DNA of 64,000 nt from Takakia lepidozioides (lineage: Eukaryota > Plantae > Bryophyta). The position numbers and the translations under genes were made by a program. The stretch is taken from positions 1,550,001-1,614,000 of the forward strand of contig CM060733.1 of the NCBI GenBank assembly GCA_030704615.1, in the 5' to 3' direction. The notes beneath the pieces were generated by a model. It worked only from the letters and a program-made list of their open reading frames with translations, was not told the DNA's origin and did no database searches. Shown one piece after another: positions 1 through 64,000 of this stretch (positions within the stretch are counted from its first letter, which is position 1; the number at the start of each line of letters is the position of its first letter).

Positions 1-1370
1 AATTGCCAAAGAGAGGGATCGGATCCTACAACGAGCCAAGAGGTTCAAGTGGGAGGGGACACACCTACTCCGAGTGTAGGAGGATGGTCGAGTGAGGATT
101 GTGCCTCACCCAACACAGCGAGCACGGTTAGTGCGGCATGCCCATAAGGAGGTGGAGCATTTGGGGGTGCGACGCACTCATAGTCTACTGCAGGAGCAAT
201 ATTGGTGACGTGATATGCACACAGAGGTGCAACAATTTGTGGCTAGGTGCATGGTGTGTGACAGGGTGCGTGCTTCATTTAACGCCCCTACACCACAATT
301 GCACCCTCTTCCGATCATGGGATTGGGCTACAGGTGGAGTCTTAACTTCGCAAGGCCATTGCCACTTACGATGCGCCACAACAAGTACGTGTTGGTGATG
401 GTGGAGCACCTCTCCAAGTGGATCGAGTTGGTTCCATTGCCTAATAAGGCTAGTGAGGGAGCTGCGTATGCATTCTTGGATCGTGTACTTAGCCGAATCG
501 GTGCTCCAGCTGAGGTACTCACGGATCAAGGGAGAGAGTTCTTGGGGGAGTTTCAGGCGTTGTGTGACAAGGCCTTGATAGACCACCGCACCACTTCTCG
601 GGATCATCCTGAGGCTGATGGCTTGGCACAGAGGGTTGTGCAAACGGTTAAGAGGGGTTTGCGCAAGTATGGCTTGCAGAAGGGACACCTTGGAGATTGG
701 GACCTTCAGCTATCCTGGTTAGTCATGGGCTACATGTTCAGCAAGCAAACATCACTTGCCTCGTTCTCGCCTTATTTCCTTCTCTTTGGCCGAGAGCCAG
801 ATTTGCCTACATCTATTCGCAGAGAGGCTACAGTAGTCCTCAATCTTGACGATCCGGATGTGTGGGCATGTGCATGTGGTCAGCGCGTGGAGTTGTTCAA
901 GAAAGTCATGCCCATGGCTTTCGAGAACCTTGCCATTGCACAACATCGTGATACGTTGAGGTATGCTACCACTATCGTCCTAGGGTTCGTAGATTTCACC
1001 CTGGTGACTATGTTTATCTGCAGCAGACTGCTCCAACGACCCTGGATATGACTGCAAGACGTGTTATTTTGAGGGTTCAAGAGGTATTGCCCTCAGGCGT
1101 CCTGATCTTGGAGGGTCGGGATGGCATGACTTGGAAGGACCATGCGCATAATTATGCGCCATGTCACCTTCCGAATGTCGATGGCAATATTGACCCAAAC
1201 CTGGCAGTGGTACCTGCAAGTTTGAGGTGCATATTGTGTGGGTCTGCTAGAGGGGCAACCACAATGCTGGTGTGTGATCGATGCTCTAGAGGTTGACATA
1301 TGGGATGTTTGACTCCACCTCTTGAGATGGTTCCTGATGGGGATTGGTTATGTCCGCATTGCATTGTATA
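1..1370 (+). pseudogene. Ty3/Gypsy pol 3' part (integrase plus C-terminal PHD finger), degenerate, cut by window start
   Basis: ORF 215-1051 has the integrase zinc-binding region (CMVC) and core (TDQGREF). Frameshifted continuation gives C4HC3 PHD CILC..CDRC..H..C..CPHC (1228-1362) with a TGA stop at 1294. Collinear with 38878-40250. Confidence 0.93.
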
Positions 1371-1615
1371 GTGGGAGTGGATACAACCATGGAAGGCTAA
1401 CAAAAAATGCAAGGCCAAGCTACTAGGAGACCAACACGCGAGATCCTGGCTCAAGTTCACAGATTGTGAGACGACGACTAATGATGAGGCTACTTTTGTA
1501 CCCGGTCTCTTGGTCTATAGAGTTTGAGTACAATAGGGACAGTAATAGAGAACTTAGTATGGCTGTGGCTATTACATCTTGTAACTATCTGGAGTTAGAG
1601 GGACCTAACCACCAG

Positions 1616-1680
1616 TTAGGGGGGCGATTGTGGTAGACTACTTTATTGTGCATATATATGTGGTGTGATTTGGACCTTGT
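1616..1680 (+). mobile_element. Polypurine tract and truncated start of 3' LTR of the first Gypsy copy
   Basis: TAGGGGGGCGAT followed by TG at 1629. The same PPT precedes the LTR at 38617-38630 on the minus strand. Confidence 0.75.
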
Positions 1681-1689
1681 AAGAGTTCT

Positions 1690-2380
1690 AACGGAAACCT
1701 ACTGAGAACTTGAGGGAGGCTTTTACTCGAGGCGCTTGATAAATATAACCCAAGGGGTTACGGAAGCTCAGGCAATCCAATTCTGGTATGGGATATTGGA
1801 CAAGGAGCTGAGGAGAAGGGTGCGGGACGCAACTCTCCTACAAGCGGCCCAACCCACCTTAGCAAATGTGTTTTTGCTGGCAGAGCGGATAGAGCTCAAC
1901 ATGGTGGAGGAACGAGTGGTCATAGTCGGATTTGCTAAGGAGACATCACGGGGTAGTGGTGCTCCTAGCCAGCCACTGCCCCAACGTGCTCAAGGCAACA
2001 AGGGGGTTCAGGTGAAGCCCAGGGAATGACAAAGATGATCTCAGATGCATGGGTCTTTCCCTTCATTTGCAGGCCAACAACGGGCGGATGTGGTGTGCTG
2101 GATATGTGGAGGATCCCATGTCAAGAAGGATTGCCTTGAGGGAGGCAACGGTTTGGCACAGGCACAGCCTGCACAGTTGTAGTGTGGGCATTGTGGCAAG
2201 CACGGACATGGAGGCCCAGTATTATGGTTTGCATCCTGAGTTGCCAAGGGAACAATGGTGGCCGGAGGCGAGGTGGAGCACCCCAGAGAGGACGAGGTGG
2301 CCAGGCACGAGGTGCAGGCCAAGGGCAAGCTCAACATGGCCAGGGACGTGGAGGTCAGGGCTTCCAACTAAACCCTAACG
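1690..2380 (+). pseudogene. Gypsy gag fragment with zinc knuckle(s)
   Basis: ORF 1736-2029 is capsid-like (AQAIQFWYGILDKELRRRVRD..LAERIE). It is followed by CWICGGSHVKKDC (about 2096-2134), CGHCGKHGH, and a Gly/Gln/Arg-rich tail, with stops and frameshifts. Confidence 0.7.
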
Positions 2381-2489
2381 TCTTGCGTACAGAAGTTGTG
2401 TGGATAAGAAGTGAGGGAGAATGACCTTCCATTGGCTTATATGGCCCGTCCCCCTCATTCCTCGGACCATGCGCATGACATATTCTAGA

Positions 2490-24979: not shown

Positions 24980-26702
24980 AATTTCCTGCTTCGATGCAGG
25001 AGGATGGATAGTTGTAAGGATCTTCGGACATGCAGTGTAATTCTTCTACCGGTCTTTGCTGGAGGGGGTTGGCCAGCTCCGAATTCGGTGACTGATGCAA
25101 GGTTCTGGCAAGCTTATGGTCCCTCATTTAAGTAGTCTTCTTTTGGATCTTTGATAGATACAATGGTGATCGGTCTCTGTTGAACTTTCTCTCCAGGTTT
25201 ACTATTGTGTGTTGACCTGTGATGTTGATGCTAGCGTGTTATTGATACCAATGCGGAGAAGCTTCTGATCCGTTTGTGAATTTACTTCCGTTTTGTGCCG
25301 AGCAGGTCAGAAAAATTGGCATGAAAGCCAACCAAGTTCAGTTTCGAGTGGTGTAGATGGAAGGTTATCTGACAAGGTATTTGTGCACTGTCGACTCTCA
25401 TGAAGGACTGTGCTACAGTCTAATATGCAGTTGTATGCATGCCTACTTGCCTGCATTGTTTGTAGTAAGTTTATAGTCCTCCCTTTTTGCTTGAATTCTG
25501 TATACATCGTTCTGGAAAGCCTTCCTATGATACATGTATTGCCTGCATTTAAACCTGATAGCGACATTTAGCCCTAGGTCGAGAATTGTCACCTGTCCGT
25601 GCAGAAATTGTATTGCGTGTTGAAGTGCATATGGCGTGAAGAGAAACGTGTCTTACTAAGTCTGCCGCATTCTTGAGGTTTGGTGAATTCTCCATTTAGG
25701 GGCCTGGGAGAGCGAGTAAACTAACTTAGTCCACTTATTTTCTTGCAGAGTACCTGACGATGGCAGGATCAGCAGCTTGTTCGTCGTTTGATGGTGGTTG
25801 GTGTACTCGTGGGCACTTTTGGACTGACGCTGAGGACAAAAGTGAATTTCCTGCTTCGATGCAGGACGATGGATAGTTGTAAGGATCTTCGGACATGCAG
25901 TGTAATTCTTCTACCGGTCTTTGCTGGAGGGGGTGGCCAGCTCCGAATTCGGTGACTGATGCAAGGTTCTGGCAAGCTTATGGTCCCTCATTCATGTAGT
26001 CTTCTTTTGGATCTTTGATAGATACAATGGTGATCGGTCTCTGTTGAACTTTCTCTCCAGGTTTACTATTGTGTGTTGACCTGTGATGTTGATGCTAGCG
26101 TGTTATTGATACCAATGTGGAGAAGCTTCTGATCCGTTTGTGAACTTCCGTTTTGTGCCGAGCAGGTCAGAAAAATTGGCATGAAAGCCAACCAAGTTCA
26201 GTTTCGAGTGGTGTAGATGGAAGGTTATCCATGTGACAAGGTATTTGTGCACTGTCGACTCTCATGAAGGACTGTGCTACAGTCTAATATGCAGTTGTAT
26301 GCATGCCTACTTGCCTGCATTGTTTGTAGTAAGTTTATAGTCCTCCCTTTTTGCTTGAATTCTGTCTACATCGTTCTGGAAAGCCTTCCTATGATACATG
26401 TATTGCCTGCATTTAAACCTGATAGCGACATTTAGCCCTAGGTCGAGAATTGTCACCTGTCCGTGCAGAAAATTGTATTGCGTGTGCATATGGCGTGAAG
26501 AGAAGTGTGTCTTACTAAGTCTGCCGCATTCTTGATGTTTGGTGAATTCTCCATTTAGGGGCCTGGGAGAGCTAGTAAACTAACTTAGTCCACATATTTT
26601 CTTGCAGAGTACCTGACGATGGCAGGATCAGCAGCTTGTTCGTCGTTTGATGGTGGTTGGTGTACTCGTGGGCACTTTTGGACTGACGCTGAGGACAAAA
26701 GT
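24980..26702 (+). repeat. About 860-bp near-identical tandem duplication of the ABCG 5' UTR/intron and first 28 codons
   Basis: 24980-25843 matches 25845-26702 with a few SNPs and indels. Both copies contain CTTGCAG|AGTACCTGACG-ATG (ATG at 25760 and 26619). Confidence 0.95.
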
Positions 26703-29700
26703 CCCGACGCCGAAAAATGGGCTGCCCTTGGGAAGCTCCTTGAAGAACAAGGAGATCGTCGACAGGTTCTGGAGAATGCTATGGCTAGCAGTGAGCAAGA
26801 CAACGAGCGTCTCCTGATTAAAATCAAAGAACGCCTAGAACGTGTGGGCATAGAGTTGCCCAAAGTTGAGGTGCGATTTGAGAGACTGTCTGTGAATGCG
26901 GATGTCCATGTTGGAAGTCGAGGTCTTCCAACTCTTGTAAACTTTACCCGCAACTTATTTGATGGTTTCTTGGCATTGTGCCGGATCTTGCCATCAAGCA
27001 AGCGCGATTTTGGTATTTTGCATGATATCAGCGGTGTTGTCAAGCCTGGAAGGATGACATTGTTGCTCGGACCACCAGGTGGAGGCAAATCAACTCTCTT
27101 GCTGGCACTGGCTGGAAAGCTACATGGAAGCCTGAGGAAGAAAGGGTTAGTCACCTATAATGGCCACAACTTGACAGAATTTTTCCCCCAAAGAACAGCT
27201 GCCTACATCAGTCAAAGTGATAATCACATTGGGGAACTAACAGTGCGGGAGACTTTAGACTTTGCTGCAAGGTGTCAAGGTGTTGGGTACAAGTTCGATA
27301 TGATGGAAGAGCTTACACGAAGGGAGATGGAGAACAACATTTGTCCTGATCCTCATATTGATGCATTTATGAAGGCCACTGCATTAGGAGGGAAGAAACA
27401 CAGTCTGTCGACGGACTACATTATGAAGGTGCTTGGGCTTGAATTCTGTGCAGATGTTGTTGTTGGCAGTGATATGCTTCGCGGTATTTCGGGAGGTCAA
27501 AAGAAAAGAGTCACCACCGGTGAGATGGTGGTGGGACCAAAGAAGACTCTGTTTATGGACGAGATATCAACAGGTTTGGACAGTTCTACAACATTCCAAA
27601 TTGTAAAGTCCACCCGTGACTTCGTGCATCTTTTACAGGGAACTGTGTTGATGGCTCTCCTTCAGCCTGCCCCAGAGACATTTGAGCTTTTTGATGACAT
27701 TATACTCCTGGCAGAGGGCCACATTGTTTACATGGGTCCAAGGGAAAGGAGCTTGGAGTTCTTTGAGAGATTGGGCTTTAAACTTCCCGATCGAAAAGGA
27801 GCCGCCGATTTTCTCCAAGAGGTGACGTCCAAGAAGGATCAGGGACAATACTGGGCAGACACAAGCAAGGCCTACAAGTTTATACCTGTGGCCGAGATAG
27901 CATCTTCTTTCAAGGACTTTGAAGTTGGGAGGGATATCACCGCATATCTTGCCGCACCTTACAACAAGGCCGACAGCCATCCGGCTGCCCTTGTCAAAGC
28001 CAAATATGCCCTGTCAAGGTGGGACCTGTTCAAAGCTTGTATAGGAAGGGAGTGGTTACTGATCAAGCGGAATAGTTTCCTGTACATCTTTCGCACATGT
28101 CAGGTCGCACTTCTATCATTTATCTGTGGTACATTGTTTATTCGGACAAGGATACATCCGGTTGACGAGCAAAATGGTTATCTGTACTTGAGTACACTTT
28201 TCTTTGCATTGGTTCACATGATGTTCAATGCATTCACAGAAATGACACTCACTGTGTGGCGACTTCCAGTATTTTATAAGCAACGTGATAATTTGTTCTA
28301 TCCTGCTTGGGCTTTCTGTGTACCCGGCTGGATAATGAGGATACCATACTCAGCCATTGAAGCTGTTATTTGGTCATGCATTGTCTACTTTGTGGTTGGC
28401 CTTGCTCCGGAGGTTGGCAGATTCTTCCGCTACATGCTGTTGCTCTTTCTTATGCACCAGATGTCTATTGGATTATTTCGGACGATCGGTGCTGTTGGAA
28501 GGACTATGGTTATTTCCAACACATTTGGTTCTTTTGCTCTTCTGATTTTATTCGTACTTGGTGGTTTCATTTTATCAAAAAGCGACATACCAAAGTGGTG
28601 GATGTGGGGATTTTGGCTGTCACCACTTTCGTATGCGCAGAATGCCATTGCAGTAAATGAATTCCTTGCCCATCGATGGAAGATCCTCAGTCCAAATACT
28701 CACGCACCGTTATACTTGAGCATCCTCCAGAGTAGAGGACTGTTCACTGAGGCGCGCTGGTACTGGATTGGTGTTGCTGTTCTTATTGGCTACACTTTTT
28801 TTTGGAACTTCACTCTTGCATGTGCTCTGAAATATCTAGGACCTCTGGGTGAGGCTCAAGCAGTGATGGCAGAAGACCTTTTCAATGAGATGTCGAAGAC
28901 ACAAACTGGTACTAGGTTTCAATCTGGCACGGCGAATGCTGACATTGAACAACAGCAAGAGTCGGTCCGTGGCCAAGCAGGGAAGGGCATGATCTTGCCC
29001 TTTCAACCCTTGGCTTTGACATTTGACAATATGTCCTACTTTGTTAATATGCCCTCTAAAATGAAAAGCAAGGCCGAGGGATCAGACAGGTTCCAACTTT
29101 TGCGAAGCATATGTGGTGCGTTCAGGCCAGGTGTGTTGACAGCACTGATGGGGGTCAGTGGGGCAGGCAAAACCACCCTCATGGATGTGCTTGCTGGAAG
29201 AAAAACGGGCGGGTATATTGAGGGAGAAATCAAGGTAGCAGGATTCATCAAGGTGCAAAAAACTTTTGCTCGCATTTCAGGGTATGTAGAGCAGACTGAT
29301 ATTCATTCTCCGCAGGTTACTGTCCAGGAGTCTTTATTGTATTCTTCATGGTTACGTCTTCCTCGGGAGGTGAGCGATGCAAAACGAACTGCCTTTGTGG
29401 AAGAGGTGATGGAGTTGGTGGAGCTGAATGTCTTGAGAAACGCTATAGTGGGGCTTCCAGGAGCCACGGGCCTCTCTACGGAGCAGAGGAAGCGCCTTAC
29501 TATTGCTGTGGAGCTGGTGGCCAACCCCTCCATCATTTTCATGGATGAGCCTACATCCGGTCTTGATGCTCGGGCAGCAGCCATTGTCTTGCGCACAGTG
29601 AGGAATACGGTGAACACAGGGAGAACTGTTGTCTGCACTATACATCAGCCAAGTATTGATATATTTGAGTCCTTTGATGAGCTTCTACTGGTAAAACAGG

Positions 29701-30827
29701 GCGGGCAAGTGATTTATGCTGGTCACCTTGGGAAGTATTCGCAGGAGTTGATTGACTATTTTCAGGCAGTTAATGGAGTCCCACCGATAGCAATGGGCTA
29801 TAATCCAGCAACGTGGATGCTAGAAATCAGCAGCCCTGCTGCAGAATTGCGGCTTGGCGTAGATTTTGCAGAATTCTTCAGGAGTTCAGATCTTTACAGG
29901 AGGAATAAAGTTTTGATTGATGAGTTAAGTGTACCAAAACCTGGTGCAACAGATTTGAAGTTCCCAACCATATTTTCCCAACCTGCAGTGGTCCAATTTC
30001 TGGCATGTTTGTGGAAGCAAAACCTCACATACTGGCGAAGCCCTTATTACAATGTCGTGCGCTTTTTCTTCACAGTCATCTGTGCAGTCATCTTTGGGTC
30101 AATATTTTGGCAACTAGGCAATAAAAGGGGAACACAGCAAGATGTGACCAATGTGATGGGGGTATTGTATGCATCGGTGTTGTTTCTGGGAGTCAATAAC
30201 TCTTCGAGTGTGCAACCGGTAGTGTCTGTAGAGAGGACAGTTTTCAATAGGGAGCGAGCAGCTGGCATGTATGCACCTGTTCCTTACGCACTTGCTCAAG
30301 CTCTTATAGAAGTTCCCTACATCCTCATCCAAACCCTTGTCTATGCAGTGATCACATACTCAATGATCCATTTCGAAAGAACTGTAGCTAAGTTCTTTTG
30401 GTATGTTTTGTTCATGTTTTTGACCTTCACATACTTCACTTTTTACGGGATGATGGCTGTGGGGCTTACTCCTTCCCAGCAGTTGGCAGCAGTGACCTCA
30501 TCTGGCTTCTACTCTCTTTGGAACCTCTTTTCAGGCTTTTTAATCTCCAAGGCTAAAATGCCCGACTGGTGGGTTTGGTACTATTGGATTTGTCCTGTGG
30601 CATGGACATTGTATGGCCTCATTGCATCGCAACTGGGTAGTGTGGAAACACCATTTTATGCTGCAGGATACGGGACCCAAATTTCTGTCAAGGACTTCGT
30701 CTTCAGCTACCTTGGCTACAAGTACGACTGGTTGGGCTTGGTTGTGGCAGTCTGTATTGGCTTTGTGGCTCTCTTCTGGGTTGTGTTTGCATTTGCGATC
30801 AAGATCCTTAACTTTCAAAACCGTTAG
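26619..30827 (+). CDS. Full-size ABCG (PDR) transporter, 1402 aa, intronless CDS
   Basis: NBD-TMD-NBD-TMD order. Walker [13 protein letters not shown] and GVSGAGKTT; signatures GISGGQKKR and GLSTEQRKR; PDR motif [12 protein letters not shown]; C-terminus LNFQNR. Confidence 0.97.
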
Positions 30828-35519: not shown

Positions 35520-36372
35520 GAAGTGCATCGCGACAGAAGGATCTTGATGTCAAGACATATAATGATGTTGCTATTTTGCCGACGTGGGTTTGGAGTTTCA
35601 CTGGAGTGCAGGCCAGGAACGGGTTCGCTCGCAGGTGGAGCACGGATTGACAATGCATCGTATGGGGAAGGACCTGAAGACCTGCAAGTACATACTGGTA
35701 CCAATAATTGATGGGTAAGTGTCCTGCGTACCACTGTTTTCCTGCCCTTTATCATTGGTCCACCATCACCGGTCTGCAACATTGGTCTGCCCAGGTCTAC
35801 CAGTGTGCTCAATGGGTCTGCCATTTTGATTTGCAGCTGTTCCCTTGTGCTGATGCGCCCTGCGTTGTGGCAGGTCTCATTGGAGTTTGATGATTATTGA
35901 CCGGGTGCTCCACGTATTCACTCATCTGAACTCAATCAAGGAGATACACAAACTCGTGGAGATATTGCCATGGGTTCGAAATGTGTATGGAGCATGTCTC
36001 GGCTTGGAGCCGCACACGACGTCGTGGGACGAGGCCACTGCATTCAATTTTCATGTCCCTGAAGTGCCACAACAACCCTTCTCATGGGAATGTGGCTTTT
36101 ACGTCATGTCCTTTATCGAGGGGTTCTATGATTGGTTGAAGAGCGATCGTGGCAAAGGACTAAGAGAGAGAGAAAAGTCGTTTACCTCAAAGTGGTTTAC
36201 ATTCCGCTATGCTTGCAGCTGGCAACGCTTAAAGTGTGTTGAGTACATTTTAAAAGCACTCAGTACTATGAAGAATGTAGTTGTAGAAAGGCAGTTGTCA
36301 TCTAGGAAGATGTCGGACGTGTCAGACTCTTCCGATGTTCGGGTTATTTCATCTAGGCCTGTCAATAAATGA
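35520..36372 (+). pseudogene. Ulp1-like (peptidase C48) domain gene, TE-associated
   Basis: KYILVPIIDG, intron 35715-35873, then SHWSLMIID..HLNS..VPQQPFSWECGFYV. Catalytic His, Gln and Cys are present; the Asp position reads Asn. Confidence 0.8.
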
Positions 36373-37254: not shown

Positions 37255-37909
37255 CTAACAGGGGGAAGGCCAGACACACGTTTCCCCCCATTTAGTTTCA
37301 TTTTCCGCCGAGCTTAAAAATGTTCCGCAAAATCCTTTTTCCTCTTCAATGATATGTTGTTGTTGTCTTTTACACGATTGAACGCTCGTGCTGCAGCCGG
37401 GTGTAGCATGCCATAAGTTTTTTTGACGAGGATGTCCTGCATCTGCCCTCGACAAATACGCACCGCAGACAAGCAATGGTGTATAAGATATGCGTCGTTG
37501 TGTACAAGGTCAAGTAGGTCGGTTTTCTCACGTTTCAAAATAGCTTCCAACAGGTTTGACGTGAGCAATGACTCTGCCGTGTTCGGGGTTGCGTTTGCAC
37601 GCACATTGTCGTTACCGCTTTCGAGGTCGCATGCTGTCATGTCGTCGTATTCGTCCAAATTCTCCAGCCCACCGTGAACAATACCGAGGTGGGAACCACA
37701 TGTCCGGACAATGAGACCGTCTTGTAGGTCTGGTTTTAGTAAATTTATGACCCAAACCTGGTGCTTGCACAGATTGCTTTTCAGCGCCCACGGGCAGGTG
37801 CAACAAAACCACTATGACTCTGGATTGAGCACGGTGTACGTTGTACTCGGATCGGAGGAGCTGATCACGTAAGCAGACTGCCCAGGCGCTGCAAGCAAAG
37901 TCACACGTG
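37255..37909 (-). pseudogene. SWIM zinc-finger C-terminal part of a MULE-type transposase, interrupted by the Gypsy LTR
   Basis: RVTLLAAPGQSAYV..YTVLNPES*WFCCTCPWALKSNLCKHQ fits CxC..CxH. Homologous to 48877-49134. Confidence 0.75.
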
Positions 37910-38617
37910 TGTCGTGCGCATACATATCGCTACACAACTACATCGCTGTCCAAAACCACACAACACATGTGCACGCGCCACACACTAGTATATCACTAGT
38001 CCACCACTGGTCCAGCCACTAGTCCAACCACTAGGCTACAACTAGTCAGTCACTAGGCTGCCACTATGTTGCCCACTATGGCAGTCACTAGTCCACACAA
38101 TGATAAAGAAGAAGAATACAAGTACAAGCTCATGCGAGCTCACAAAGCTGAAGCATAAACTCATGCATATATAAACTCATCACTCAAATACAAGTCAAGC
38201 CAAGTGTACCCCACGCCATGGGAAATCCACACTACGGTGCCATAGCTAGGCGCGGTGAGGCTCAACTCGACAAAGATGAGCCTCCCACGCTTGCCGTGAA
38301 GATAACCACTCCAGGGCCTAAATCTGCCTTGACCCCTGGATTGACACTTGGGCCAATCCCAAATGTCAATATGTAAAAGCTAGCTATTTCCTAGCTAGTT
38401 TCACACTAATGGTGAACTAACTTGACAGCTGTCGTGCGCATACATATCGCTACACAACTACATCACTGTCCAAAACCACACAACACATGTGCACGCCACA
38501 CACTAGTATATCACTAGTCCACCACTGGTCCAGCCACTAGTCCAACCACTAGGCTACAACTAGTCAGTCACTAGGCTGCCACTATGCTGCCCACTATGGC
38601 AGTCACTAGTCCACACA
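37910..38617 (-). repeat. 3' LTR region with A-x-A structure (190-bp and 188-bp direct repeats at 37910-38099 and 38430-38617)
   Basis: Starts TGT right after the PPT (38618-38630) and ends ACA at the junction with the interrupted SWIM ORF. The two terminal segments are nearly identical. Confidence 0.85.
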
Positions 38618-38877
38618 ATCGCCCCCCTAGCTGGTGCTTAGGTCCCTCTAAGTCCAGGTAGCCACAAGATGTGATAGTGACCATAGCCTCACTAAATCCT
38701 CCACCACTATCCCTACTACACTCGAACTCGATAGATCAAGAGGCCGGGTGCAAGAATTGCCCCATCGTTAGTCGCCGTCTTGCAACCTGTGAACTTGAGC
38801 TTGGGATCTCATGTATTGACTCCTATGAGCTTGGCCTCCCATGTCTTGTTAGCTGCCTCCAGTCATGTCCACTGCCA

Positions 38878-41800
38878 CTATCCCAAGCAGTGTGGACACA
38901 ACCAATCTCCATCAGGAACCTTCTCAAGAGGTGGTGTCAAGCATCCCATATGCCAACCCCTTGAGCATCGATCACACACCAGCATGGTGGCTGCCCCTTT
39001 GGCAGACCCACAGAGCATGCACCTCAAACCTGCAGGTACCACTGCCAAGTTTGGGTCAACTCTGTCATCGACATTGGGAAGGTGACATGGCGCACAATTA
39101 CGCACATGGTCCTTCCAAGTCATGCCATCCCGACCCTCCAAGATCAGGACCCCTGAGGGCAACACCTCTCGAACCCTCAGAATAACACGCCCTGCAGTAA
39201 CATCCAGAGTCGTAGGAGCAGTCTGCTGCAAATAAACATAGTCACCAGGGCTAAACCTCCGAACCCCAGGACGATATCCTCCACCACGTATAGTGGCATA
39301 CCTCAACGTATCACGGTGCTGTGCAATGGCAAGGTTCTCAAAAGCCATGGGCATGACTTTCTTGAACAACTCTGCACGCTGATCACATGCACGTACCCAC
39401 ACGTCCGGATCGTCAAGGTTAAGGACTTGAGCAGTGTCCCTACGAATGGCTGCAGGCAAATCCGGCTCTCGGCCAAAGAGAAGGAAATATGGTGAGAAGG
39501 AGGCAAGTGATGCTTGTTTGCTGAACCTGTAGCCCATGGCTAACCAAGGAACCTGAAGATCCCAATCTCCTAGGTGTCCCTTTGCAAGCCATACTTGCGC
39601 AAACCCCTCTTCACCGTCTGAACAACTCTCTCTGCCAAGCCATCGGCCTCAGGATGATCCCGAGAAGTGGTGCGGTGGTCTATCAAGGCTTTATCACACA
39701 AAGCCTGAAACTCCCCAAGAACTCTCTCCCTTGGTCCGTGAGTACCTCAGCTGGAGCACCAAATCGGCTAAGCACACGATCCAAGAATGCATACGCAGCC
39801 CCTCACTAGCCTTGTCAGGCAATGGAACCAACTCAATCCACTTGGAGAAGTGCTCCACCATCACCAACACATATCTGTGGTGGCGCATAGTCAGTGGCAA
39901 CGGTCCTGCGAAGTCAAGACTCCACCTGTAGCCCAATCCCATGATTGGTAAAGGATGCAACTGTGGTGTAGGGGTGTTGAATGAAGCACGCACCCTGTCA
40001 CACACCATGCACCTAGCCACGAACTGTTGCACCTCTGTATGCATACCACGCCACCAATACTGCCCCTGCAGTAAACTGTGAGTGCGTCGCACTCCAAAAT
40101 GCCCCAACTCCTCATGGGCATGCCGCACTAACCGTGCACGCTGTGTGGGGTGAGGCACAATCCTCACCCGACCATCCTCCCACACTCGAAGTAGGTGTAT
40201 CCCCTCCCACTTGAACCTCTTGGCTCGTTGCAGGATCCGATCCCTCTCCCTGGCAGTCACAGTGGCTGCCGTGTCTCCCGTGCGGAGGTAGTCCAACACA
40301 GCCGAATCCTCATGTATATCTCTGGCACCACCTGGCTCATCACTAGCCTCAGGGTCCTCAGACACTCCGTCTACAGTCATCCCTGTTGTAGGTCCAACCT
40401 GACCTCCCGATGCCAAGATACACAAAAATGCAGATGCGTGCCATCCCGGCACCATCTCCTCGTCCGTCTCACCATGCCACCGAGCTCCAGTGTCATCCTG
40501 CTGGCTCATGCATGGATTGCGACTCAATCCATCCGCATCCCGATTGACCAAACCCGGTCGATGCACAACCTGAAAGTCATACTCCTGGAGTATGAGTGCC
40601 CACCGTGCAAGCTTCCCCGTAAGCTTGTCTGACTCCATCAACCACTTGAGTGGCTGGTGATCCGTGACAAGGGTGAAAAGATTGCCGTATAGATAGCACC
40701 TGAAGTGTGCCACGGCCCACACTGCAGCTAAGCACTCTCCCTCATATGAGCTGTACTTAGCCTCTGCAGCGTTGTTCGAGCGGCTAGCATAAGCCACTAC
40801 GAACTCTCTTCCCTCATCATCCACCTGTGTGAGCACCGCTCCAAGCCCCAGCATGCTCCAATCCGTATGCAGCTGAAAGGGACGCCCCCTGATAGGTCGT
40901 CTCAGGATAGGCGCCGAGGTCAACCTCGCCTTGAGCTCTTGAAAAGCTCGTTCCTGCTCATCTTCCCACTGCCACTCCTGGTCCACCTTGGTCAGCTTGG
41001 TTAGAGCCTTTGCAATGGTACTAAATCCCTTGACAAACCGTCTATAATAGTTTGCCAACCCCATGAAAGCTCGAACTCGGCTCACATCCGTGGGGCGTGG
41101 AATTTGTGCAATGGCCTCTACCTTAGTCTGCTGTACCCCCAATCCTCCAGGATATATCATGTGACCCAGATACTCAATCTGGTTGTGGAAAAACTTGCAC
41201 TTCCCCGGATGCAACTTCAATCCGTGCGCTCTCAAGCGCTCCAATACCACCTGAAGGTGTCTCTCATGCTCCTCCATCGTAACACTAAAGATGATGATGT
41301 CATCTATGTAGCACCGAGCAAAGTCCACCCCTGCTAGAATCCTATCCATGACTCTCTGAAACTCTGCAGGAGCATTCTTAAGCCCAAATGGTAAGAACCG
41401 CCACTGATATAGGCAATCCTTGCCGTGCTCATTGATCCCCCAGAATGTCGTCTTCTGCTTGTCCGCCTCCTTGATTGGCAACTGGTGATATCCGGATCGT
41501 AAATCCAAAGTGCTAAAGACCTTAGCATGCCCGATGGCATCAAAGATCTCCTCTGGTGTTGGCATGGCATACTTATCGGACTTGGTCTGACGATTTACAG
41601 GCCGGTAATCACCGCACATACGTCTCTCCGTCCAATTGCCATAGACATCCTTCTTGGCTGGCATCACTGTGGCTGAAGCATACTCTCCACCAGAGAGCTC
41701 CACCAAACCTGCCTCCCAGAGATCTTGAGTCCTCATCTGAATCAAAGACCTCTCCATGTCACTGTATCTATAGGGTCTCCGAAAGATTGGCGTGTCAGTG

Positions 41801-41880
41801 GCCAACTCAATACGGATCTCTTGACCCTTCAGTGCTCCCAAGTCCTTCAAACTGAAGGCAAAGCAATTCCTGTAAGCCCT
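38878..41880 (-). pseudogene. Gypsy pol: RT, RNase H, integrase, PHD finger (frameshifts near 39700-39800)
   Basis: RT: RMCGDYR, LDLRSGYHQ, LPFGLKNAP, YIDD. RNase H: LHTDWS, YEGECLA, TDHQPL. Integrase: H..H..CMVC plus core. PHD: CMLC..CDRC..HMGC..WLCPHC (38887-39021). Confidence 0.95.
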
Positions 41881-42309
41881 CAGGAACCGCCGTATACGTC
41901 GTCTCTCTCCTCCGGTGACAATGGGTCCAATGTCAGGCTCCCAATTGTCCTCCGTAACTGCAACCTTAAGTCCAGTGGGCTTAGAGGTAGAGACGCGTCC
42001 AGTGGTTGCTATGTTGCAACCTCTTGAGCAGTACTCCCTACCTGCTCAGTCAGTGACAAGGCCTCATCCTGCCCCATCATCTCATCCTCAAGGACTTCCT
42101 CACCCGAGAAAAATCCCCAACCTCATCATCATCGCCACCTTGGCTGCCAACTCCCTCTGAACCTCGAGCACCTCCCACGTGTGCCATGGATGCCTGCACC
42201 CCGTGGTCCTCACATGCTCGCCCCCACTCACTGCCTGTACCGTCTCGGTAGGCAGAGAGACCATCGAGGGAAGTGTACTCCGCACTCTGCGTTGCTCAGC
42301 CATAGCCAA

Positions 42310-43155
42310 GCTGATAATCCAGGTCAAGCAATTGAGATCCATTGCTTGCCCCAACACTTGACGACGTGATGCCTCAGAAAGAGACGACATCGCCGTGGTA
42401 CCAGTGGTAAAACCCATTTCCCGCTCACGCTCGTCAGCATTAGGCTCCACTAACTACTGCAACTGAGCATCCCACAGGAGGCCAGGTCCACTATCTCGGA
42501 AAGCATGCGATCCTGGGAAGCTGAGCAGTGTAGGTAATGCTGCTCGTGGTTGACCCACCTTGTTGACCACTGCCAAAGGCGAACGGTCATCGTGTCTCAC
42601 ACGCTGAGATTGCCTCCCTGTGTCCAGAATGCTATCCACTGTGAGATGTGCTGGCCGCTGCACCCCATCAAATGCATGCTTGAGCAGTGCGGGTGGCATC
42701 AAGTTAGTCCACCATAGCCGTGGATGATGAGCCCCGTGACCCCACTGTAGCTGCATCTAGCAACACTGCTGACCCAAGCCACGACCGGACTTGATGCACA
42801 CTGGCCATCACCCTGGCCCGAGAATCGCCCATCAGTGGCACATTCTCCAAGATGTATGTTGGAGATACAGCTTGATGAAGCTGCAAGTGGCGCAAAACCC
42901 GCACCATCTCCCAAAACAGACCCGACCTCGAGTCTCGTAATCCATTGCCATGCCCGGCTGATGAATGCCATTGGCAGGGCAACCCTGCCACTACCAGATC
43001 AGTGGAGCCAATCCGCTCCAAATCCTGCGCCCCCAGCAACAAAATGTCTGCTGGCAAGGCCTGCTGATATCCACGAATTGTAGACACCTGCCTGTAACAC
43101 AGCAGCCAATCCGGTGCTGATCCCGCCAAACAAGTCCAGAAGACAAATGTCTTCA
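42310..43155 (-). pseudogene. C5 cytosine DNA methyltransferase domain within Gypsy pol
   Basis: Ordered motifs: I LLDLFGGI (about 43119-43142), IV DLVVAGLPCQ (about 42972), VI ILENV (42839-42853), VIII HHPRLWWTN (about 42703-42729), IX EREREMGF (about 42409-42432), X VLGQAMD (about 42337-42357). Two frameshifts and one stop. Confidence 0.9.
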
Positions 43156-43433
43156 TCCGGATACTGCCACACAATAGGTGTGGTGTCCAATGGAGACAAC
43201 TGAGGTGGTCCTGGTGCAATCCCTGCACTCTCCTCCTCTCTTGACGGTACAAAAACCTCTACCCAGGCTTGTTGCACCCGTCGATCAGCATCCCGCTGCA
43301 AATCCTTGCTCGTGCCCCACAATGGAGTCTGAGCAACCATGGTAGGCAACTCCGCCATACCATACATGTCCTCCTACTCTCCCAGAGGTGGCACATCCTC
43401 TGAATGAGCGTTGCCCTCAAGTAGCTCTCCAGG

Positions 43434-43839
43434 TCAATTCACTGCCGCTGTGAATGCTGCTAGTGTCGGCATCTTGCCTCGTTGGGCAACCGCAACTCCT
43501 CCTATGAATGTCACAGGGAGCTGCACACGCCGGCCCTCCCCTGACTGCCATCCAGGCCTATAAGAAGCTGACTCCTCCCAAAAATCTAGGGTGATGCCCA
43601 TGGGGTACAACACTGCCCCACCAACCAGGACATCGTACGAGACCGCGTCTGTCATAATGGCCTTGGTTTGCATTACTGAGCCATCTGTAGGGTGATCCGG
43701 CCGTAGTCTGATAGCCAACTCATGCCGTATCATGCCCCGAGCCTGCTCCGATCATCCCAGAGACGTCTGTATTTGGAAAAGACAAGGCTCCATATCCGCC
43801 TTCGTGAGGCCCAAGCCTGCAATAGCAGCTCTGCCCAAC
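43434..43839 (-). pseudogene. C-terminal half of retroviral-type aspartic protease
   Basis: LGRAAIAGLGL..FQIQTSLG*..SYDVLVGGAVLYPMGITLDF contains the D-hydrophobic-G motif. The D(S/T)G active site is lost at the 43839 breakpoint. Confidence 0.65.
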
Positions 43840-44927
43840 CTCAAACAGAAAATGTCATCCTGGTTGTCTAACATGACAACTCCAGGTGTAACATGGCGTG
43901 CTCAATGGCTGGCCTAGCTAGCAGTTCCATCAATCTGGCAGCTGCAGCTTGCCATGGCGCTACCGTGGCAGTCTTGACCCTCAAATCCGAGGATCCCTCT
44001 GGCACTACACCTCCCACTATCTCCTGACAGAGTAGGAAGTGGTCACTACTCAAGATGTTGCAGCATAACAAACACGGGATGCGTCTTCTACCTCTACGTC
44101 TGCTGAACTCAAGGTTGCAGTCACGGAGGACAACTGGGAGCCTGATGTTGGACCCATAGTCACCGGAGGAGAGAGACGACATATACGGCGGTTCTTGAGG
44201 GCTTACAAGAACTGCTTTGCCTTTAGTTTGAAGGACTTAGGAGCACTGAAGGGTCAAGAGATTCGCATTGAATTGGCCACTTACACGCCAATCTTTCGGA
44301 GACCCTATAGATACAGTGACATGGAGAGGTCCTTGATTCAGATGAGGACTCAAGACCTCTGGGAGGCTGGTTTGGTGGAGCTATCTGGTGGAGAGTATGC
44401 TTCAGCCACAGTGATGCCACCCAAGAAGGATGTCTAATATCTATGACAATTGGATGGAGAGACGTATGTGCGGTGATTACCGGCCTGTAAATCGTCAGAC
44501 CACGTCCGATAGGTATGCCATGCCAACACCAGAGGAGATCTTTGATGCCATTGGGCATGCCAAGGTCTTTAGCACTTTGGATTTACGATCCGGATATCAC
44601 CAGTTGCCGATCAAGGAGGCGGATAAATAGAAGACAACATTCTGGGGGATCAATGAGCATGGGAAGGATTGTCTATACCAGTGGCGGTTCTTACCATTTG
44701 GGCTTAAGAACGCTCCTGCAGATTTTCAGAGTGTCATGGACAGGATTCTAGCAGGGGTGGAGTTTGTTCGGTGCTACATAGATGACATCATCATCTTTAG
44801 TGCAACGGTGGAGGAGCATGAGAGACACCTTCAGGTGGTATTTGAGCGCGTGAGGGCGCACGGATTGAAGTTACATCCGGGGAAGTGCAAGTTTTTCCAC
44901 AACCAGATTGAGTATCCGGGTCACATG
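43840..44927 (+). pseudogene. Second, oppositely oriented RT fragment of the same Gypsy family
   Basis: About 44025-44927 is an inverted homolog of about 41158-42050 (KDLGALKGQEIRIELAT..YIDD..GHM), with stops and frameshifts. It is cut by the LINE tail. Confidence 0.93.
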
Positions 44928-45758
44928 AGAGAGAGAGAGAGAGAGAGAAGACTCCGGCCGAGGCCGGCGTAACTAAGAGCCACTTCACCTTGCGGCTACT
45001 GCCCCCTCTCAGGGGTAGGCCCTATAGCAAAAAAGTGTCCAGGGGGACACCAGATGACCGCTAAGAATAGAGGGGGTGAGGATACCCCTAGGTACCCAGG
45101 GGTATCCTGGGGGACCGATGTCGCGTTTGAAGTGCCGGATTCCAGTTGGTGTTTGTTGGTGATAATAGCTGTGAGTGAACGGAGTGCTGTGAGACGGATT
45201 TCTTTGAAACATTTGTAGATGGGAAGAATGGGAATTTGGAAGTTATCGTGTATGTCCGTGATACTGGTGTTATGAATGCCACCTCGAGTGTCGGCTGTGA
45301 TGAAAGTTAACGGGCCGGTTTTCCAGCCACGCCTTCGGAGTGCAAGGATAAGCGGGGCATATTTTTGACGTTTTTCTAAGATAGAATTGTTTGGATAACG
45401 ATCATGGCAAAATGTGAATTCAATGAAATGGATGGTGAGTTGTGGGGATGGTGAGGTGGGGGGTAAAGTGTTGATAGGTAGACCTTGGACGAGGAGTATG
45501 TCGGGCAAAGTCGACGGGGCATGAGCATGGTGATCGGGTACATATGCTGGTAGTAGTCATGGTGGTACTGTGCGGTCGGGTGGCCATCCCTGGTAGGTGC
45601 CTGCATTCATGAGCGAGAACCACCGGTTTTCAGCACGTTTTAGAAAGAACTTATAGAGGTGCCAGACCGCCTGGTTATGACGCGTGATATGCAAGCCATG
45701 TATAACTGGGTGTGTACATTGGCTGAGGAGATGTGGCCAAGTGTCACGAGCTTGGTGG
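44927..45758 (-). mobile_element. 3' part of a non-LTR retrotransposon with a restriction-like endonuclease and (TC)n tail
   Basis: HLLSQC..TRHNQAV (end of zinc knuckle plus RHN), PDILLV..IHFIEFTFCHD..EKRQKY (PD..E..K..KY pattern). Ends in (TC)n at 44927-44948. The 5' part runs into the gap. Confidence 0.85.
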
Positions 45759-46258
45759 NNNNNNNNNNNNNNNNNNNNNNNNNNNNNNNNNNNNNNNNNN
45801 NNNNNNNNNNNNNNNNNNNNNNNNNNNNNNNNNNNNNNNNNNNNNNNNNNNNNNNNNNNNNNNNNNNNNNNNNNNNNNNNNNNNNNNNNNNNNNNNNNNN
45901 NNNNNNNNNNNNNNNNNNNNNNNNNNNNNNNNNNNNNNNNNNNNNNNNNNNNNNNNNNNNNNNNNNNNNNNNNNNNNNNNNNNNNNNNNNNNNNNNNNNN
46001 NNNNNNNNNNNNNNNNNNNNNNNNNNNNNNNNNNNNNNNNNNNNNNNNNNNNNNNNNNNNNNNNNNNNNNNNNNNNNNNNNNNNNNNNNNNNNNNNNNNN
46101 NNNNNNNNNNNNNNNNNNNNNNNNNNNNNNNNNNNNNNNNNNNNNNNNNNNNNNNNNNNNNNNNNNNNNNNNNNNNNNNNNNNNNNNNNNNNNNNNNNNN
46201 NNNNNNNNNNNNNNNNNNNNNNNNNNNNNNNNNNNNNNNNNNNNNNNNNNNNNNNNNN
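45759..46258. other. Assembly gap (500 N)
   Basis: Run of n. Confidence 1.
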
Positions 46259-50628: not shown

Positions 50629-53600
50629 TCACAAAATCAGGACATGTGCAATTGGGGAAATTGGAAACCGTGATGTCGTAGGTCCTGTCATGAACAGCAG
50701 ATGTGGAAGTGATGATTGTGAATACCCGACCATATCCTGGATCGGGTACTTCCGTGGTCTTCCAACACGAGCTTGGAGCATTCTTGCGGACTCCACTTTG
50801 CCAAAGTGTTCAGCGGTTGGAGGGAAACGCCGAACGAGCTTTCCATCTCGTTTTTGGCCACAAGTCAGGATTTGCCGGGGGACCCGGGAGGACGCAGAAG
50901 TAGTAGCACATGCATGGAGTTGGGGTTGTCTCGCAAGGGAAAAACCTACCTCCTCCAGCATTTCAATCTCCTGAAAGCTGAGATGTGTTCCCACCTTCAC
51001 GGGCCAAACGGTTGGAGGAGTTGGCTTCATCACTACGAAGGACGCACAGTTCCATGCACACATCTGGCACAATCATCTGCGCAGAACCAGAACTTGTGGT
51101 TCTTGGCTTCTGGTTGACCGTATGGCGCATCAAGCCGTGAAAGTTGGAGCAGGAGTTCGGGCACCACCTCTGGATATAGATGAAGTGCACTTCTCGAAAT
51201 TAGTTGCCCTGATATCGCTGTACATTTCACACGAGACCCTACACTTGTGCGTTCTATGTGCCAAACGTGGTCGGGGCATGCGGACTCAAGCACATCAAGG
51301 GTGTTTCTTCCTCCTGCACCATTTCAGTGGCACTGTTTGATGCTGGAGCTTGCCGTCGTGTTGGAGTTCCTCCACAATAGAGGTTCCGGACATGGAGCTG
51401 TCATGCAGGGGAACACGAGGCTTCGAGAAGTTATCACGGTCTGCCCTGTGGGAATCTGAATCCGAACCAGGGGAGTGTTCAATTTCCTCTTACAGGAGCC
51501 GAATCTCTCCTCCTCTTCAAGATGTGGAACTCTAGAAACAAGTGGCGTTCCCTGGGCATACATGCTCACCGCCCGTGCTATCTTGATTGGATCCCCAGAT
51601 CTGTTTGCAGCACGCAACATCAACTCCCATTTGTCCGGACCCTTGCCACCAACCCCACCTCGTAAGAAATCACGGTATCGGGTTTGTTGTTGCAAGGCAC
51701 GTATCAAATCATCTGTTGTTGCCACATACAAATCCCGACCTCGTTTCCCAGACTGCTGCAACCATGCGTTGTGCACAGTTTCTGCCAAATTGCAAGATGG
51801 CATGTCCGCCATTTCCTCAATGGACATGTTCTGCAAAGAGGATAACCACACTTCAGAACAGTGCACAGGAAACAACATAAAGAAAGCAATGAGTCAAAAA
51901 ATATGGAAGCAAATGTATGAATAAAGCATGAAATAGAAGCCTCGTACCATTGTCATGGCTGCTCCCCACTGTCTATACCGGAAGTGCCAAAACGCCAGCC
52001 AATCTTCAATGCTCTCATACTCTCAAGTGATGCAGCTCCAGAAGAGAACCACCATGCACGAATTGTCTGGAACAAAGTGTCCGCCTCCTTCATTGTTCTA
52101 GCATCTTTGTACTCTTTGCACAATTTACGGTGCTGAGTCTGCATCTCTGGTTTGATGTCCGACTTTGTATGTTTTTCCAGAGATTGTGTCCAATGGAATA
52201 GACATGTACGCTCTCTTCCTGGCATAGGCACTTTTGGGTCGCCCGATCCGAAGACAATACGAACAGCATTGAAATTTGCTTGAGCACTATCCGCCATGAA
52301 ACCTGCGAAATTTGGAGATGGCAGCCCATGGCAGCCCATGACACGTATCAGGGAATTCCACATGAGCTTCTGGGATTCCGTATCCTCGGATTGCATGTCA
52401 CAAACTGCAATTGTCATAACTCGTTGGTACACTGGATCGTAGACATGACAAGCCATTGTCGTCCAATCCTTCACTCGTTTCACATGATCAAACATAAGAA
52501 AACAGTTCTGCAAGTCCCCAGTCTTCTGCATCCGCTTCACGAGGCTAACCCACTGCCCTCCCAACAGTCGACATTTGAAAAGAAAAACTTTGATGGCACC
52601 TACCTGGGAATACATTGTCCTGGATGTAATCGTACTTGCTCACGTCGTTTCAATTCCAAAATATTGTCTATGTAGCCTCTGATCCCAGAGCCATTCTCAA
52701 TGCATTGACTGATGCCGAATGTTAGGTGAACTTAAAGTGGAGAAATGATCCATGACCAGGTCCAATGCTGCACCGTCAAGTTTAGTCCCCACAGAATCTC
52801 CTTCACTCAAAATATGCTTTCCAAGAAGGACTTGCTTGCGCCAAGAGCAATTGCAGATGTTGTTGCGGATGGGTTTCTCCGAACTCATGTTTGATCAACC
52901 TCGATACTGTCTCAACACTCTCCCTGTAACCCCCTTCGAGACAGGATGGTTATGGAATCCAAAATGCACACAAACTCTCGTCATTGTATTCAAACGGTGG
53001 ACAACATAGTACATTCTTGCTCCGCAGAGCGCCAAACAGGATGGCACAAGTTTTGCAGAATTTGCAGACGAAAGTGTTTGCCGGTGGAGGGGCCAGTCCC
53101 AGGCTGAAATGGATTTTCCGCCAGACCCTCCCATTCGCTTTGATTATGAACCCCAGACTGAAGAAAGTGGTCTGCCATTCAAATTATCACACCTAAGGTG
53201 TCCATTGCAAACTGTCATCCTGAAAACAAGCTTGTCATCATTCTGAATATTGGATGTTTTTGTTTCTGCACCACGGGCCCGTCGTGTTTCTTGTCCGTTC
53301 CATGCATCATGATTGTTACACCTCCAACTCGCGGAGGAGGAGGTAGCTCGAATAGGATATCGCCATCAAAAAGTCTCCGGCAAGAACTTCACAGGCACCT
53401 GCTTCAAAAGATTCCCAATCAATTCCCCGCAACTCACTTTTGAATCCAGCCATTCCTCCCATCGCCCGCAATTTTGGAATGACACTACAAATCTCTTCTT
53501 CATCAGCTTCTCCAACCACAGTATGGAAGGACTGGATTTGGAATTTCACTTATGTCATCATCAGAAGAATCCGAAAGCTCAACGATTGGAGTGGAGGACG

Positions 53601-63000: not shown

Positions 63001-64000
63001 ATGGACGAGCCCACTAAGGCAGGTGAGGAAATGTTGATCCCAAATTTCTCAGCCATGGCCTTCTGGTACATCATCACATGCGATATTGTAGCCTTCAAAT
63101 CCATTATATCTTTGTGTTGTGCACCGTGTGCTCTTTCCATATCCTCCACTTTGCGAGCAATTGCTGAATATCCAGAGGTCCCCTCCTGCCAGGTCCACGC
63201 AAGTCCATGAACAACATGAGAACATCATGTCGCTGGTAGGGAAAATGCCTAGAACAAAATAATCGACAAAAAATGGGAGAAAGAATGATCACGTGGATCT
63301 CACCATCCGCTCGCTGGTCGATGTTCTGCTTACTGAACCTTCCTGGATTTCATGCAACGATGGACTTTGGCCTCGCTCCTATGCCTGCATTTGTCATGTA
63401 CCAGCTCAATATGCTAGCATGGTCAGCCATGACGAGCGACATACCATTCTGGGACAACAGTGATTGAACAGAGGTTTGTCAGACATACTGTTGGGATGCA
63501 ACCAATATTGGTATCCCCGCGCCCACTAACGTAGTCACTATGTATGCAGTAGTACAGAGAGCTGAGTTATGCAGCTAATGCAGAAGAGTAATCACCAGCA
63601 CAGCACTACCCTATGTTAATGACCACAAAAAAGTCATGTTAACACTCACACTCACACTCACTATTGCAGTTTCAAATACTGCCCTGACATCATCATTGCA
63701 CGACAACTCTGATCAGACCCTCCTCTATCCACACTTACAGATTGGTATGTAAAATGAGGACCCCACCCACTACACACTAACAGGTCACAATTCCATCATT
63801 CCAAAAAACCCAACCTCACCTAGCTGATTACATACAAACAGTCCAAATTAAAGCCCACTTTGGATGTCAGACCCGATTGAAAATTCCCCAAGCATGAGTG
63901 CTGGCTAGTTTCCTCACCATCAAGTCATGGTTGAAACAATCAAGTGCAAATTAGCTCTTAATAATGAGTTTCATTCATTTGGGGAATGGCTTAATAGAGA
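60085..64000 (-). mobile_element. CACTA (En/Spm) transposon; one end visible, continues beyond the window
   Basis: CACTACAACAAA begins exactly where the tandem repeat is interrupted. Internal minus-strand gene ends with a TnpA/Tnp1-like domain. Confidence 0.75.
61218..63190 (-). CDS. CACTA TnpA-like protein (3' exons) containing an FCP1/NIF-type HAD phosphatase-like domain
   Basis: ORF 61938-63149: LLILDINGLL..VVRPGCKAFL..FEVAAWS..FLKNLSTVW..TLLVDDTPHK..NAIFP. Splice donor at 61994. Last exon: AGSGRI..PEGYVAIHIDDV..NAPLPY..LGDTVGYIIVW. Confidence 0.75.

Follow-up and report, generated by a model that had tools for sequence, protein, structure and literature searches.

A 64,000-nucleotide stretch of the genome of the moss Takakia lepidozioides (the window: GenBank assembly GCA_030704615.1, contig CM060733.1, positions 1,550,001 to 1,614,000 of the forward strand) contains a dead, 5′-truncated copy of a multi-copy Gypsy-type retrotransposon family that carries a C5 DNA methyltransferase (DNMT) and closes its pol region with a plant homeodomain (PHD) finger. 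We propose, with a probability of roughly 0.6, that the family encodes Gag, protease and a DNMT3, then a readthrough stop, then a frame running from reverse transcriptase (RT) to the PHD, that the DNMT methylates new complementary DNA (cDNA) and that the PHD steers integration. Unbroken relatives would accordingly make Gag, protease and DNMT3 from a first frame and RT, RNase H, integrase and PHD from a second one by readthrough, so that the DNMT would be as abundant as Gag, and RT and integrase much less so. The DNMT would be packed into the particle, be released by the protease and methylate the new cDNA, so that fresh insertions would arrive pre-marked. The PHD would remain attached to integrase, read unmodified histone H3 and direct insertion away from active promoters, while an internal junction of the form B-NN-A between two repeats (see below) would template both ends and the DDE integrase would join the TG...CA ends to the target, duplicating 4 bp. 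Domain order, the presence of the DNMT across the family, its DNMT3 type, purifying selection on it, the conserved stop, the layout of the repeats and the target duplications are seen in the sequences; readthrough, packaging, the activity and substrate of the enzyme, the ligand of the PHD and the regeneration of the ends are the steps of this cycle that we infer.

Read from 44023 down to 37910, the window element consists of Gag-protease linker and protease remnants, DNMT, RT, RNase H, integrase, PHD and a repeat block (Table 1). Pfam annotation of the window together with the relatives L006 and L001 recovers the Gypsy domain set (Gag, protease, RT, RNase H and DDE integrase); it finds no chromodomain in any of the three, a PHD being present instead, and no tyrosine recombinase, rve and H2C2 being present. 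An earlier note, made from the letters alone, had described C5-methyltransferase motifs in order between a protease remnant and RT on the pol strand and had suggested a check with PF00145. That profile matches at 42704-43258 (minus strand, E = 1.4e-11), and the motifs keep their canonical order: I at 43136-43110, IV (PCQ) at 42982-42968, VI (ENV) at 42847-42839, VIII at 42729-42712, IX at 42432-42421 and X at 42351-42337. Matches to RT, RNase H and integrase span 39694-42045 on the same strand, with the YIDD of RT at 41310-41299, and the C4HC3 PHD that the note placed at the end of pol is recovered by PF00628 (E = 3.4e-11) in the stretch 38878-39648.

The same note took the copy to be dead, and it is: relative to Marchantia and to a contig of run X7, about 35 codons are absent at 43084-43088 of the DNMT, which also carries a frameshift near 42732, a stop at 42454-42456 and substitutions in motifs IV and VIII. 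The reading frame is also shifted within the DNMT-RT linker and three times in the integrase, and the active-site stretch of the protease is absent near 43840. The element boundary drawn at 43839 has to be moved, as homology extends to about 44023, where an inverted 905-nt fragment of another family copy takes the place of the element's 5′ part. The opposite boundary, at 37910, is indeed a repeat terminus, but that of a split direct repeat and not of a member of an ordinary long terminal repeat (LTR) pair.

Table 1. Features of the window (positions are those of the 64,000-nucleotide stretch)
Feature	Position	Strand	Evidence or remark
Second family copy: integrase, PHD, 3′ untranslated region, then Gag remnant (1730-2146)	4..2146	+	86.7% identical over 4-1640
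Host intronless ABCG31-like transporter, 1402 codons, outside the element	26619..30827	+	75% identical to Sphagnum and Ceratodon proteins
Repeat B2, 3′ terminus of the element, ending ...GACA at 37910	37910..38101	-	188/190 aligned bases identical to B1
Repeat A2, beginning TGTC	38102..38427	-	A1/A2 pairs in L016, L031, L034, L050
Palindromic B1-A2 junction GACA-GC-TGTC, right end meeting left end across 2 nt	38424..38433	.	Window
Repeat B1	38430..38618	-	Repeat comparison
G-rich tract before B1, polypurine-tract-like (putative role)	38619..38632	-	
PHD finger, C4HC3, C terminus of pol	38887..39021	-	Pfam; residue pattern; without the cage tryptophan of H3K4me3 readers
DDE integrase and H2C2 zinc finger	39150..40122	-	Three frameshifts
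RT (YIDD) and RNase H, frame open	40450..41874	-	Pfam; 77-78% identical to liverwort proteins
TAG CAA CCA in the RT frame	42003..42011	-	Family-conserved stop, CARYYA readthrough-type context
C5 cytosine methyltransferase domain, DNMT3-type by profile and predicted fold, non-permuted, broken here	42295..43155	-	Pfam, motifs, family profile, fold
Aspartic protease remnant without active-site stretch, and Gag-protease linker remnant	43506..44023	-	tblastn to relatives
Inverted fragment of another family copy (linker and RT)	44024..44928	+	905 nt, 91.5% identical; stop then CAA at the same place

Relatives were gathered by a metagenome scan with the RT-RNase H alignment only, which gave 490 relatives, the best 80 of which were kept (65 distinct), and from protein lists with 1621 and 1739 matches, of which 240 relatives are listed. 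A family DNMT profile built from six natural domains and the window fragment scored 50-65 bits with DNMT3A/B/C, 29-35 with DRM, about 29 with M.HhaI and about 25 with DNMT2, and DNMT1 was absent from the matches listed for it. The DNMT3 assignment rests on the family, because with the window fragment by itself M.HhaI (24 bits) comes out slightly ahead of DNMT3B (21.5 bits). For the natural, unbroken domain of L006 we obtained a model with a predicted local distance difference test score (pLDDT) of 68 and a predicted template modeling score (pTM) of 0.75, and all Foldseek matches listed for it are DNMT3 structures. By profile and modeled fold, the family enzyme is a non-permuted DNMT of the DNMT3 type.

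The ratio of nonsynonymous to synonymous substitution rates (dN/dS) was estimated for the 10 loci with full-frame DNMT and RT, which form 45 pairs. Across 17 between-subfamily pairs the median was 0.19 for DNMT and 0.11 for RT, and the pair L006-L007 gave 0.12 and 0.04, below the value of 1 that the earlier note had set as a test for the DNMT. The family DNMT is under purifying selection, and the catalytic PCQ and ENV are kept in 4 of 4 stop-free domains and in most of 17 full-frame domains. Two features of the data set pull the other way: in 15 close pairs the DNMT ratio is 0.51-0.56, as expected of decaying copies, and dS is saturated in 13 of the 45 pairs.

Selection on the enzyme leaves room for a different substrate, and we regard it as unlikely, though a serious contender, that the DNMT targets host chromatin or the element's integrated copies, or works as a decoy or by binding nucleic acid, with no role in cDNA methylation. 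A Gag-level DNMT would presumably surpass the need of one cDNA per particle, and the related enzyme of Klebsormidium nitens, KnitGypsy-Dnmt3, produced no de novo methylation in yeast, a result that its authors call inconclusive in the accessible text of PMC5890265. The element also lacks extra CpG depletion: its observed/expected CpG ratio (0.53) is indistinguishable from that of the host gene (0.51), relatives range from 0.28 to 0.70, and there is therefore no special methylation footprint, so that CpG depletion was discarded as a mark of self-methylation. The retention of PCQ and ENV argues against this reading, as do the related SymbioDIRS-Dnmt3 enzymes, which methylate CG; cDNA methylation has been proposed for DIRS elements in the same text (PMC5890265).

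The DNMT, placed between protease and RT, shares the reading frame of its two neighbours, but members of the bryophyte clade have a stop between it and RT, which interrupts the protease-DNMT-RT frame that the earlier note had proposed to look for. In L006 a Gag-protease-DNMT frame of 1369 codons is followed by one TAG and, in the same phase, by an RT-RNase H-integrase-PHD frame of 1047 codons, and since the conserved stop precedes RT, a single DNMT-containing polyprotein would form only if the stop is read through. By hand count, 32 of the 39 distinct loci with both sides present have TAG or TAA followed by CAA or CAG at the homologous position; the linkers around it show little other similarity, and among decay stops CAR follows in just 7 of 314. 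CARYYA is matched in the window (TAG CAA CCA) and in L001, L005, L006, L007 and L009, each of which holds TAG-CAR-YYA in frame. UAG-CARYYA is a known plant-virus readthrough signal, and TGA-CGG is another listed readthrough context (accessible text of PMC4132726). Judged by this context and its conservation, the stop is likely read through. Among distant relatives, TGA-CGG follows soon after the DNMT in L069 and L072 and no stop is present in L065, and the recoding signal may therefore have arisen more than once.

Several observations weigh against readthrough. The motif is missing in 7 of the 39 loci (TGA-CGG in two, no stop in one, mutated or deleted sequence in four), and under stricter automatic criteria stop-CAR was counted in 28 of 52 loci, with 2 of these lying at other positions. 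About two thirds of the 39 loci come from one subfamily, so the stop counts are not independent. The largest subfamily reads TAG CAA CCC ATG, in which the sixth base does not match CARYYA and an ATG in the same frame comes next, an arrangement that fits reinitiation, and Marchantia gene models skip the stop region as if it were spliced. The DNMT-RT frame is continuous in named algal and several other relatives, which, together with the chlorophyte placement of the DNMT after RNase H, implies that Gag-level DNMT expression is not needed everywhere. It is accordingly conceivable, if quite improbable in our estimation, that the anatomy is as described but that RT-RNase H-integrase-PHD is produced via splicing or reinitiation: beyond the ATG two codons past the stop and the Marchantia models, a Coleochaete transcriptome protein spans RT to PHD only. 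Against such a route speak TAG-CAR-YYA, kept in frame in the window and the five loci named above though no ATG is there, and the TGA-CGG of two distant relatives, also a known readthrough context.

The association of DNMT and RT was counted in the 39 distinct loci (among the best 80 of 490) whose upstream sequence reaches 1.5 kb or more. Protease and DNMT occur together in 26 of them and the DNMT alone in 9; 4 contain neither, and no locus has a protease but lacks the DNMT. The DNMT is therefore present in 26 of 26 loci that keep the protease and in 35 of the 39 overall, which disposes of the earlier concern that other copies might lack it, and its distance to RT is nearly constant in most metagenome loci. 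A 2754-nt contig of run X7, labelled as another organism, joins RNase H, RT and DNMT over window positions 40628-43240 and holds about 100 extra bases at the window's DNMT deletion. Contig depth summed over run X1 (31,387 contigs), which may be the window's own sample, is alike for DNMT and RT bins, which is no measure of copy number, and run X12, only guessed to be RNA, leaves 42395-42979 uncovered, from which no conclusion is drawn. The closest named relatives of the window RT frame are liverwort proteins (Calypogeia 77%, Riccia 77%, Marchantia Mp_2g26090 78%). Two Marchantia gene models carry PF00145, and their DNMT is 65-69% identical to that of the window (67-69% for the window pieces against MARPO_0091s0058), far above chance. 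The suggestion that a Gypsy-type family with DNMT plus PHD persists in a land-plant lineage is supported.

Among the 240 listed proteins the DNMT precedes RT in 25, with Klebsormidium, Closterium and Marchantia named, and follows it in 51, between RNase H and integrase, with Haematococcus and Pleodorina as the named eukaryotes; no vascular plant is named as a family member among these 240. P0045, P0060, P0069, P0072, P0074 and others are of the DNMT-after-RT type, many of them without a precomputed PF00145 label. IMG/VR returned one distant match, 31% identical and without DNMT. P0569 (uncultured cyanobacterium) and P0093 (a Minisyncoccia metagenome-assembled genome) are family members with bacterial labels and likely represent eukaryotic contigs inside bacterial bins.

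In the RT tree a single clade of 65 rows (SH-aLRT 100) takes in every DNMT-bearing element, and the chromodomain-bearing and animal Gypsy rows fall outside it. Within this clade L001, L009, Calypogeia, Marchantia and L002 share a group with the window (98), and a Coleochaete protein lies nearby (89). The main RT groups recur in the DNMT tree, where the window joins Marchantia (99). K. nitens proteins fall inside the RT clade (100) and P0051 in the DNMT clade (90), unmatched to the copies named in PMC5890265. Pairwise DNMT and RT identities are correlated across 37 elements (Mantel rho 0.57, 0 of 5000 permutations, related rows not being independent), and the DNMT phylogeny tracks the RT phylogeny. 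A point against the proposed model is that the rows of the DNMT tree include no cellular DNMT3. The DNMT-after-RT group is a clade in both trees (99 for RT and 92 for DNMT), which suggests a single relocation of the domain. The window family is the bryophyte branch of the streptophyte Gypsy-DNMT3 lineage, and the DNMT is a family trait. The heavy damage of the window copy, its proximity to an assembly gap (45759-46258) and the 4 of 39 loci without DNMT might suggest that a host DNMT gene was captured just once, that the domain is a nested insertion or that the assembly is chimeric. These readings are refuted by the linkage counts and the trees: those 4 loci also lack the protease, DNMT-RT spacing is nearly constant in most loci with the liverwort models and the X7 contig in agreement, and the DNMT tree follows the RT tree.

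The PHD finger was compared across the 81 family PHDs among the listed proteins. At the cage position, two residues before the zinc-binding His, 75 of 81 have Gly and 0 of 81 have Trp, and Asp directly follows the third Cys in 77. Gly in place of Trp together with this Asp marks readers of unmodified H3 and not of H3K4me3, and the ADD domain of animal DNMT3 reads the same unmodified state. Among solved structures, the most similar PHDs belong to CHD4, KDM5A/B, PHF12, ATXR5, DPF, BAZ2 and UHRF1. From this residue pattern, the family PHD is predicted to read unmodified histone H3 tails.

Full copies, in which paired LTRs had been expected, carry split direct repeats instead. The complete layout A1-body-B1-A2-B2 occurs in L016, L031, L034 and L050; the window keeps B1-A2-B2, and no second A repeat, the partner A1, is present within it. 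Two contigs of run X12 cease matching at 38427 and continue into unrelated flanks. The B1-A2 junction has the same form with other spacers in L006, L010, L016, L034, L050, L074 and L076, and no other non-coding sequence is as well conserved among relatives as the 50 nt that precede B1. Elements start TG-like and finish in CA, and ends homologous to the window's B2 terminus abut the target duplication in relatives. This 4-bp duplication is exact in 7 of the 9 testable loci (TACA/TACA in L068) and has one mismatch in the other 2; L040 and L049, which have A1 and B matches, fall outside the 9 loci with both ends placed. Five of the nine (L012, L017, L026, L035/L036 and L068) hold a short integrated form, A-body-B with the 4-bp duplication, for which either B1-B2 recombination or insertion of a monomer circle could suffice.

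In L016, A1 and A2 share a short insert (1835-1860 and its counterpart in A2) that is missing in L034 and L050, as expected if both repeats were copied from one template; it matches, in reverse complement, the sequence that immediately follows A1. We considered self-priming through 23 nt of complementarity that links the sequence following A1 to the interior of A, and rejected it, as the complementarity is clear only in L016, weak in L031 and absent in L034 and L050; inspection by eye of three loci revealed no evident tRNA primer site after A1. The B-NN-A junction likely templates both ends, which the DDE integrase would then use.

A broader scheme can be drawn from these elements, although we hold it to be tentative and on balance doubtful. 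It envisages a green-lineage-wide superclade of split-repeat integrase elements that has retained one DNMT3 and a PHD reading unmodified H3 since before land plants, in which bryophyte readthrough would load active DNMT3 at Gag levels, the integrase would open the CA-NN-TG junction and the enzyme would contribute to the bryophyte methylome.

Other parts of the window contain further repeats and genes. Next to the second family copy, a Gag remnant (1640-2400, plus strand) with zinc-knuckle-like motifs adjoins the start of that copy's repeat B, an arrangement that either a deletion between tandem copies or a nested insertion would explain. An array of ~50-nt repeats with an internal palindrome (2490-3430) resembles the subterminal repeats of DNA transposons. 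The host ABCG31-like protein shares 66-68% identity with proteins from lycophytes, ferns and liverworts and 61% with Mesotaenium, and an exact look-up gave no match for it. A quick tree of 22 rows with no hornwort makes it the sister of Sphagnum plus Ceratodon (SH-aLRT 100), within a paralogue clade linked to mosses. Directly upstream of its gene lies a tandem duplication of ~865 nt, 97% identical (24980-26702), which is recent or an assembly artefact. Mutator-like remnants of an Ulp1 protease and a SWIM finger occur at 35854-36372, 37314-37811 and 51324-52639, the SWIM remnant adjoining the 3′ end of the element. The stretch 44929-45560 holds an (AG)n tract together with an 86-nt repeat that recurs at 12506-12591, at the end of a fragment resembling a long interspersed nuclear element and before the assembly gap, and a 428-codon frame at 61938-63224 (minus strand) encodes a NIF-like phosphatase domain (E = 3.9e-16).

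According to a 2019 review, land plants such as tracheophytes lack transposons that encode DNA methylases, and the review rests an argument on this loss (accessible text of PMC6338049). With the family in liverworts (the Marchantia polymorpha models) and in a moss, the tracheophyte claim stands and any loss moves past the bryophyte split. Two sources mention streptophyte elements and do not name land plants in their accessible text (PMC12344493; bioRxiv 10.64898/2026.05.21.726589), and the accessible texts of PMC6453930, PMC11244446, PMC11982613, PMC6317226 and PMC2754532 contain nothing on this family. No land-plant report of it was found in the literature, with subscription journals, Repbase, the main supplement of de Mendoza et al. 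2018 (PMC5890265) and preprint supplements outside the search, and the accessible texts likewise yielded no account of the family's occurrence in land plants, of its conserved stop, of the end-to-end junction and the 4-bp duplications, or of the relocated chlorophyte DNMT. Why a transposon carries a silencing enzyme is a question that can now be approached in a plant model with good genetics, and the position of the stop predicts the stoichiometry of the enzyme. Split repeats with integrase ends are likely missed or misfiled by paired-LTR detectors, and some of the DNMT3 counted in bryophyte genomes may be transposon copies.

The repeat layout of the family is that of PAT and Ngaro, tyrosine-recombinase elements with A-body-B-A-B split direct repeats. 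SymbioDIRS-Dnmt3 adds a DNMT3 cargo to the likeness, whereas the family here differs from DIRS, PAT and Ngaro in its DDE integrase, TG...CA ends and 4-bp target duplications. Chromoviruses and Phygy/Selgy share the Ty3/Gypsy order of RT, RNase H and integrase, with bryophyte hosts for Tcn1 and Phygy (Neumann et al. 2019, accessible text of PMC6317226), but plant chromoviruses differ from this family, which has no chromodomain and lies outside the chromodomain-bearing rows of the RT tree; the terms "methyltransferase" and "plant homeodomain" are absent from the main text of PMC6317226, which does not support a PHD on Selgy. Troyka was set aside as a relative, having CG...CG termini, 3-bp duplications and animal hosts (accessible text of PMC12440569) as opposed to TG...CA and 4 bp here. 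PHD-bearing Gypsy elements are described in Chlamydomonas, Gypsy-7a_cRei and REM1, with a PHD like the present family's and no methyltransferase mentioned for them in the accessible texts (PMC9940879, PMC6673714). EpiLTRs of Cymbomonas and Euglena, which join a DNMT4-sister enzyme with DAM and a chromodomain, are likewise LTR retrotransposons with a DNMT and a chromatin-reader domain, so that writer plus reader on one element is not new; the preprint, in its accessible text, separates them from streptophyte Gypsy-DNMT3 (bioRxiv 10.64898/2026.05.21.726589). The closest counterpart is KnitGypsy-Dnmt3, for which the accessible text reports DIRS-like repeats and Ka/Ks <0.2 and whose main text contains neither the term "PHD" nor, as far as accessible, a CA-NN-TG junction or 4-bp duplications (PMC5890265). 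It shares with the family described here the Gypsy domains, a non-permuted DNMT3-type domain, DIRS-like repeats and purifying selection on the DNMT, whereas the present family has a land-plant host, many copies, a conserved stop between DNMT and RT and a C-terminal PHD.

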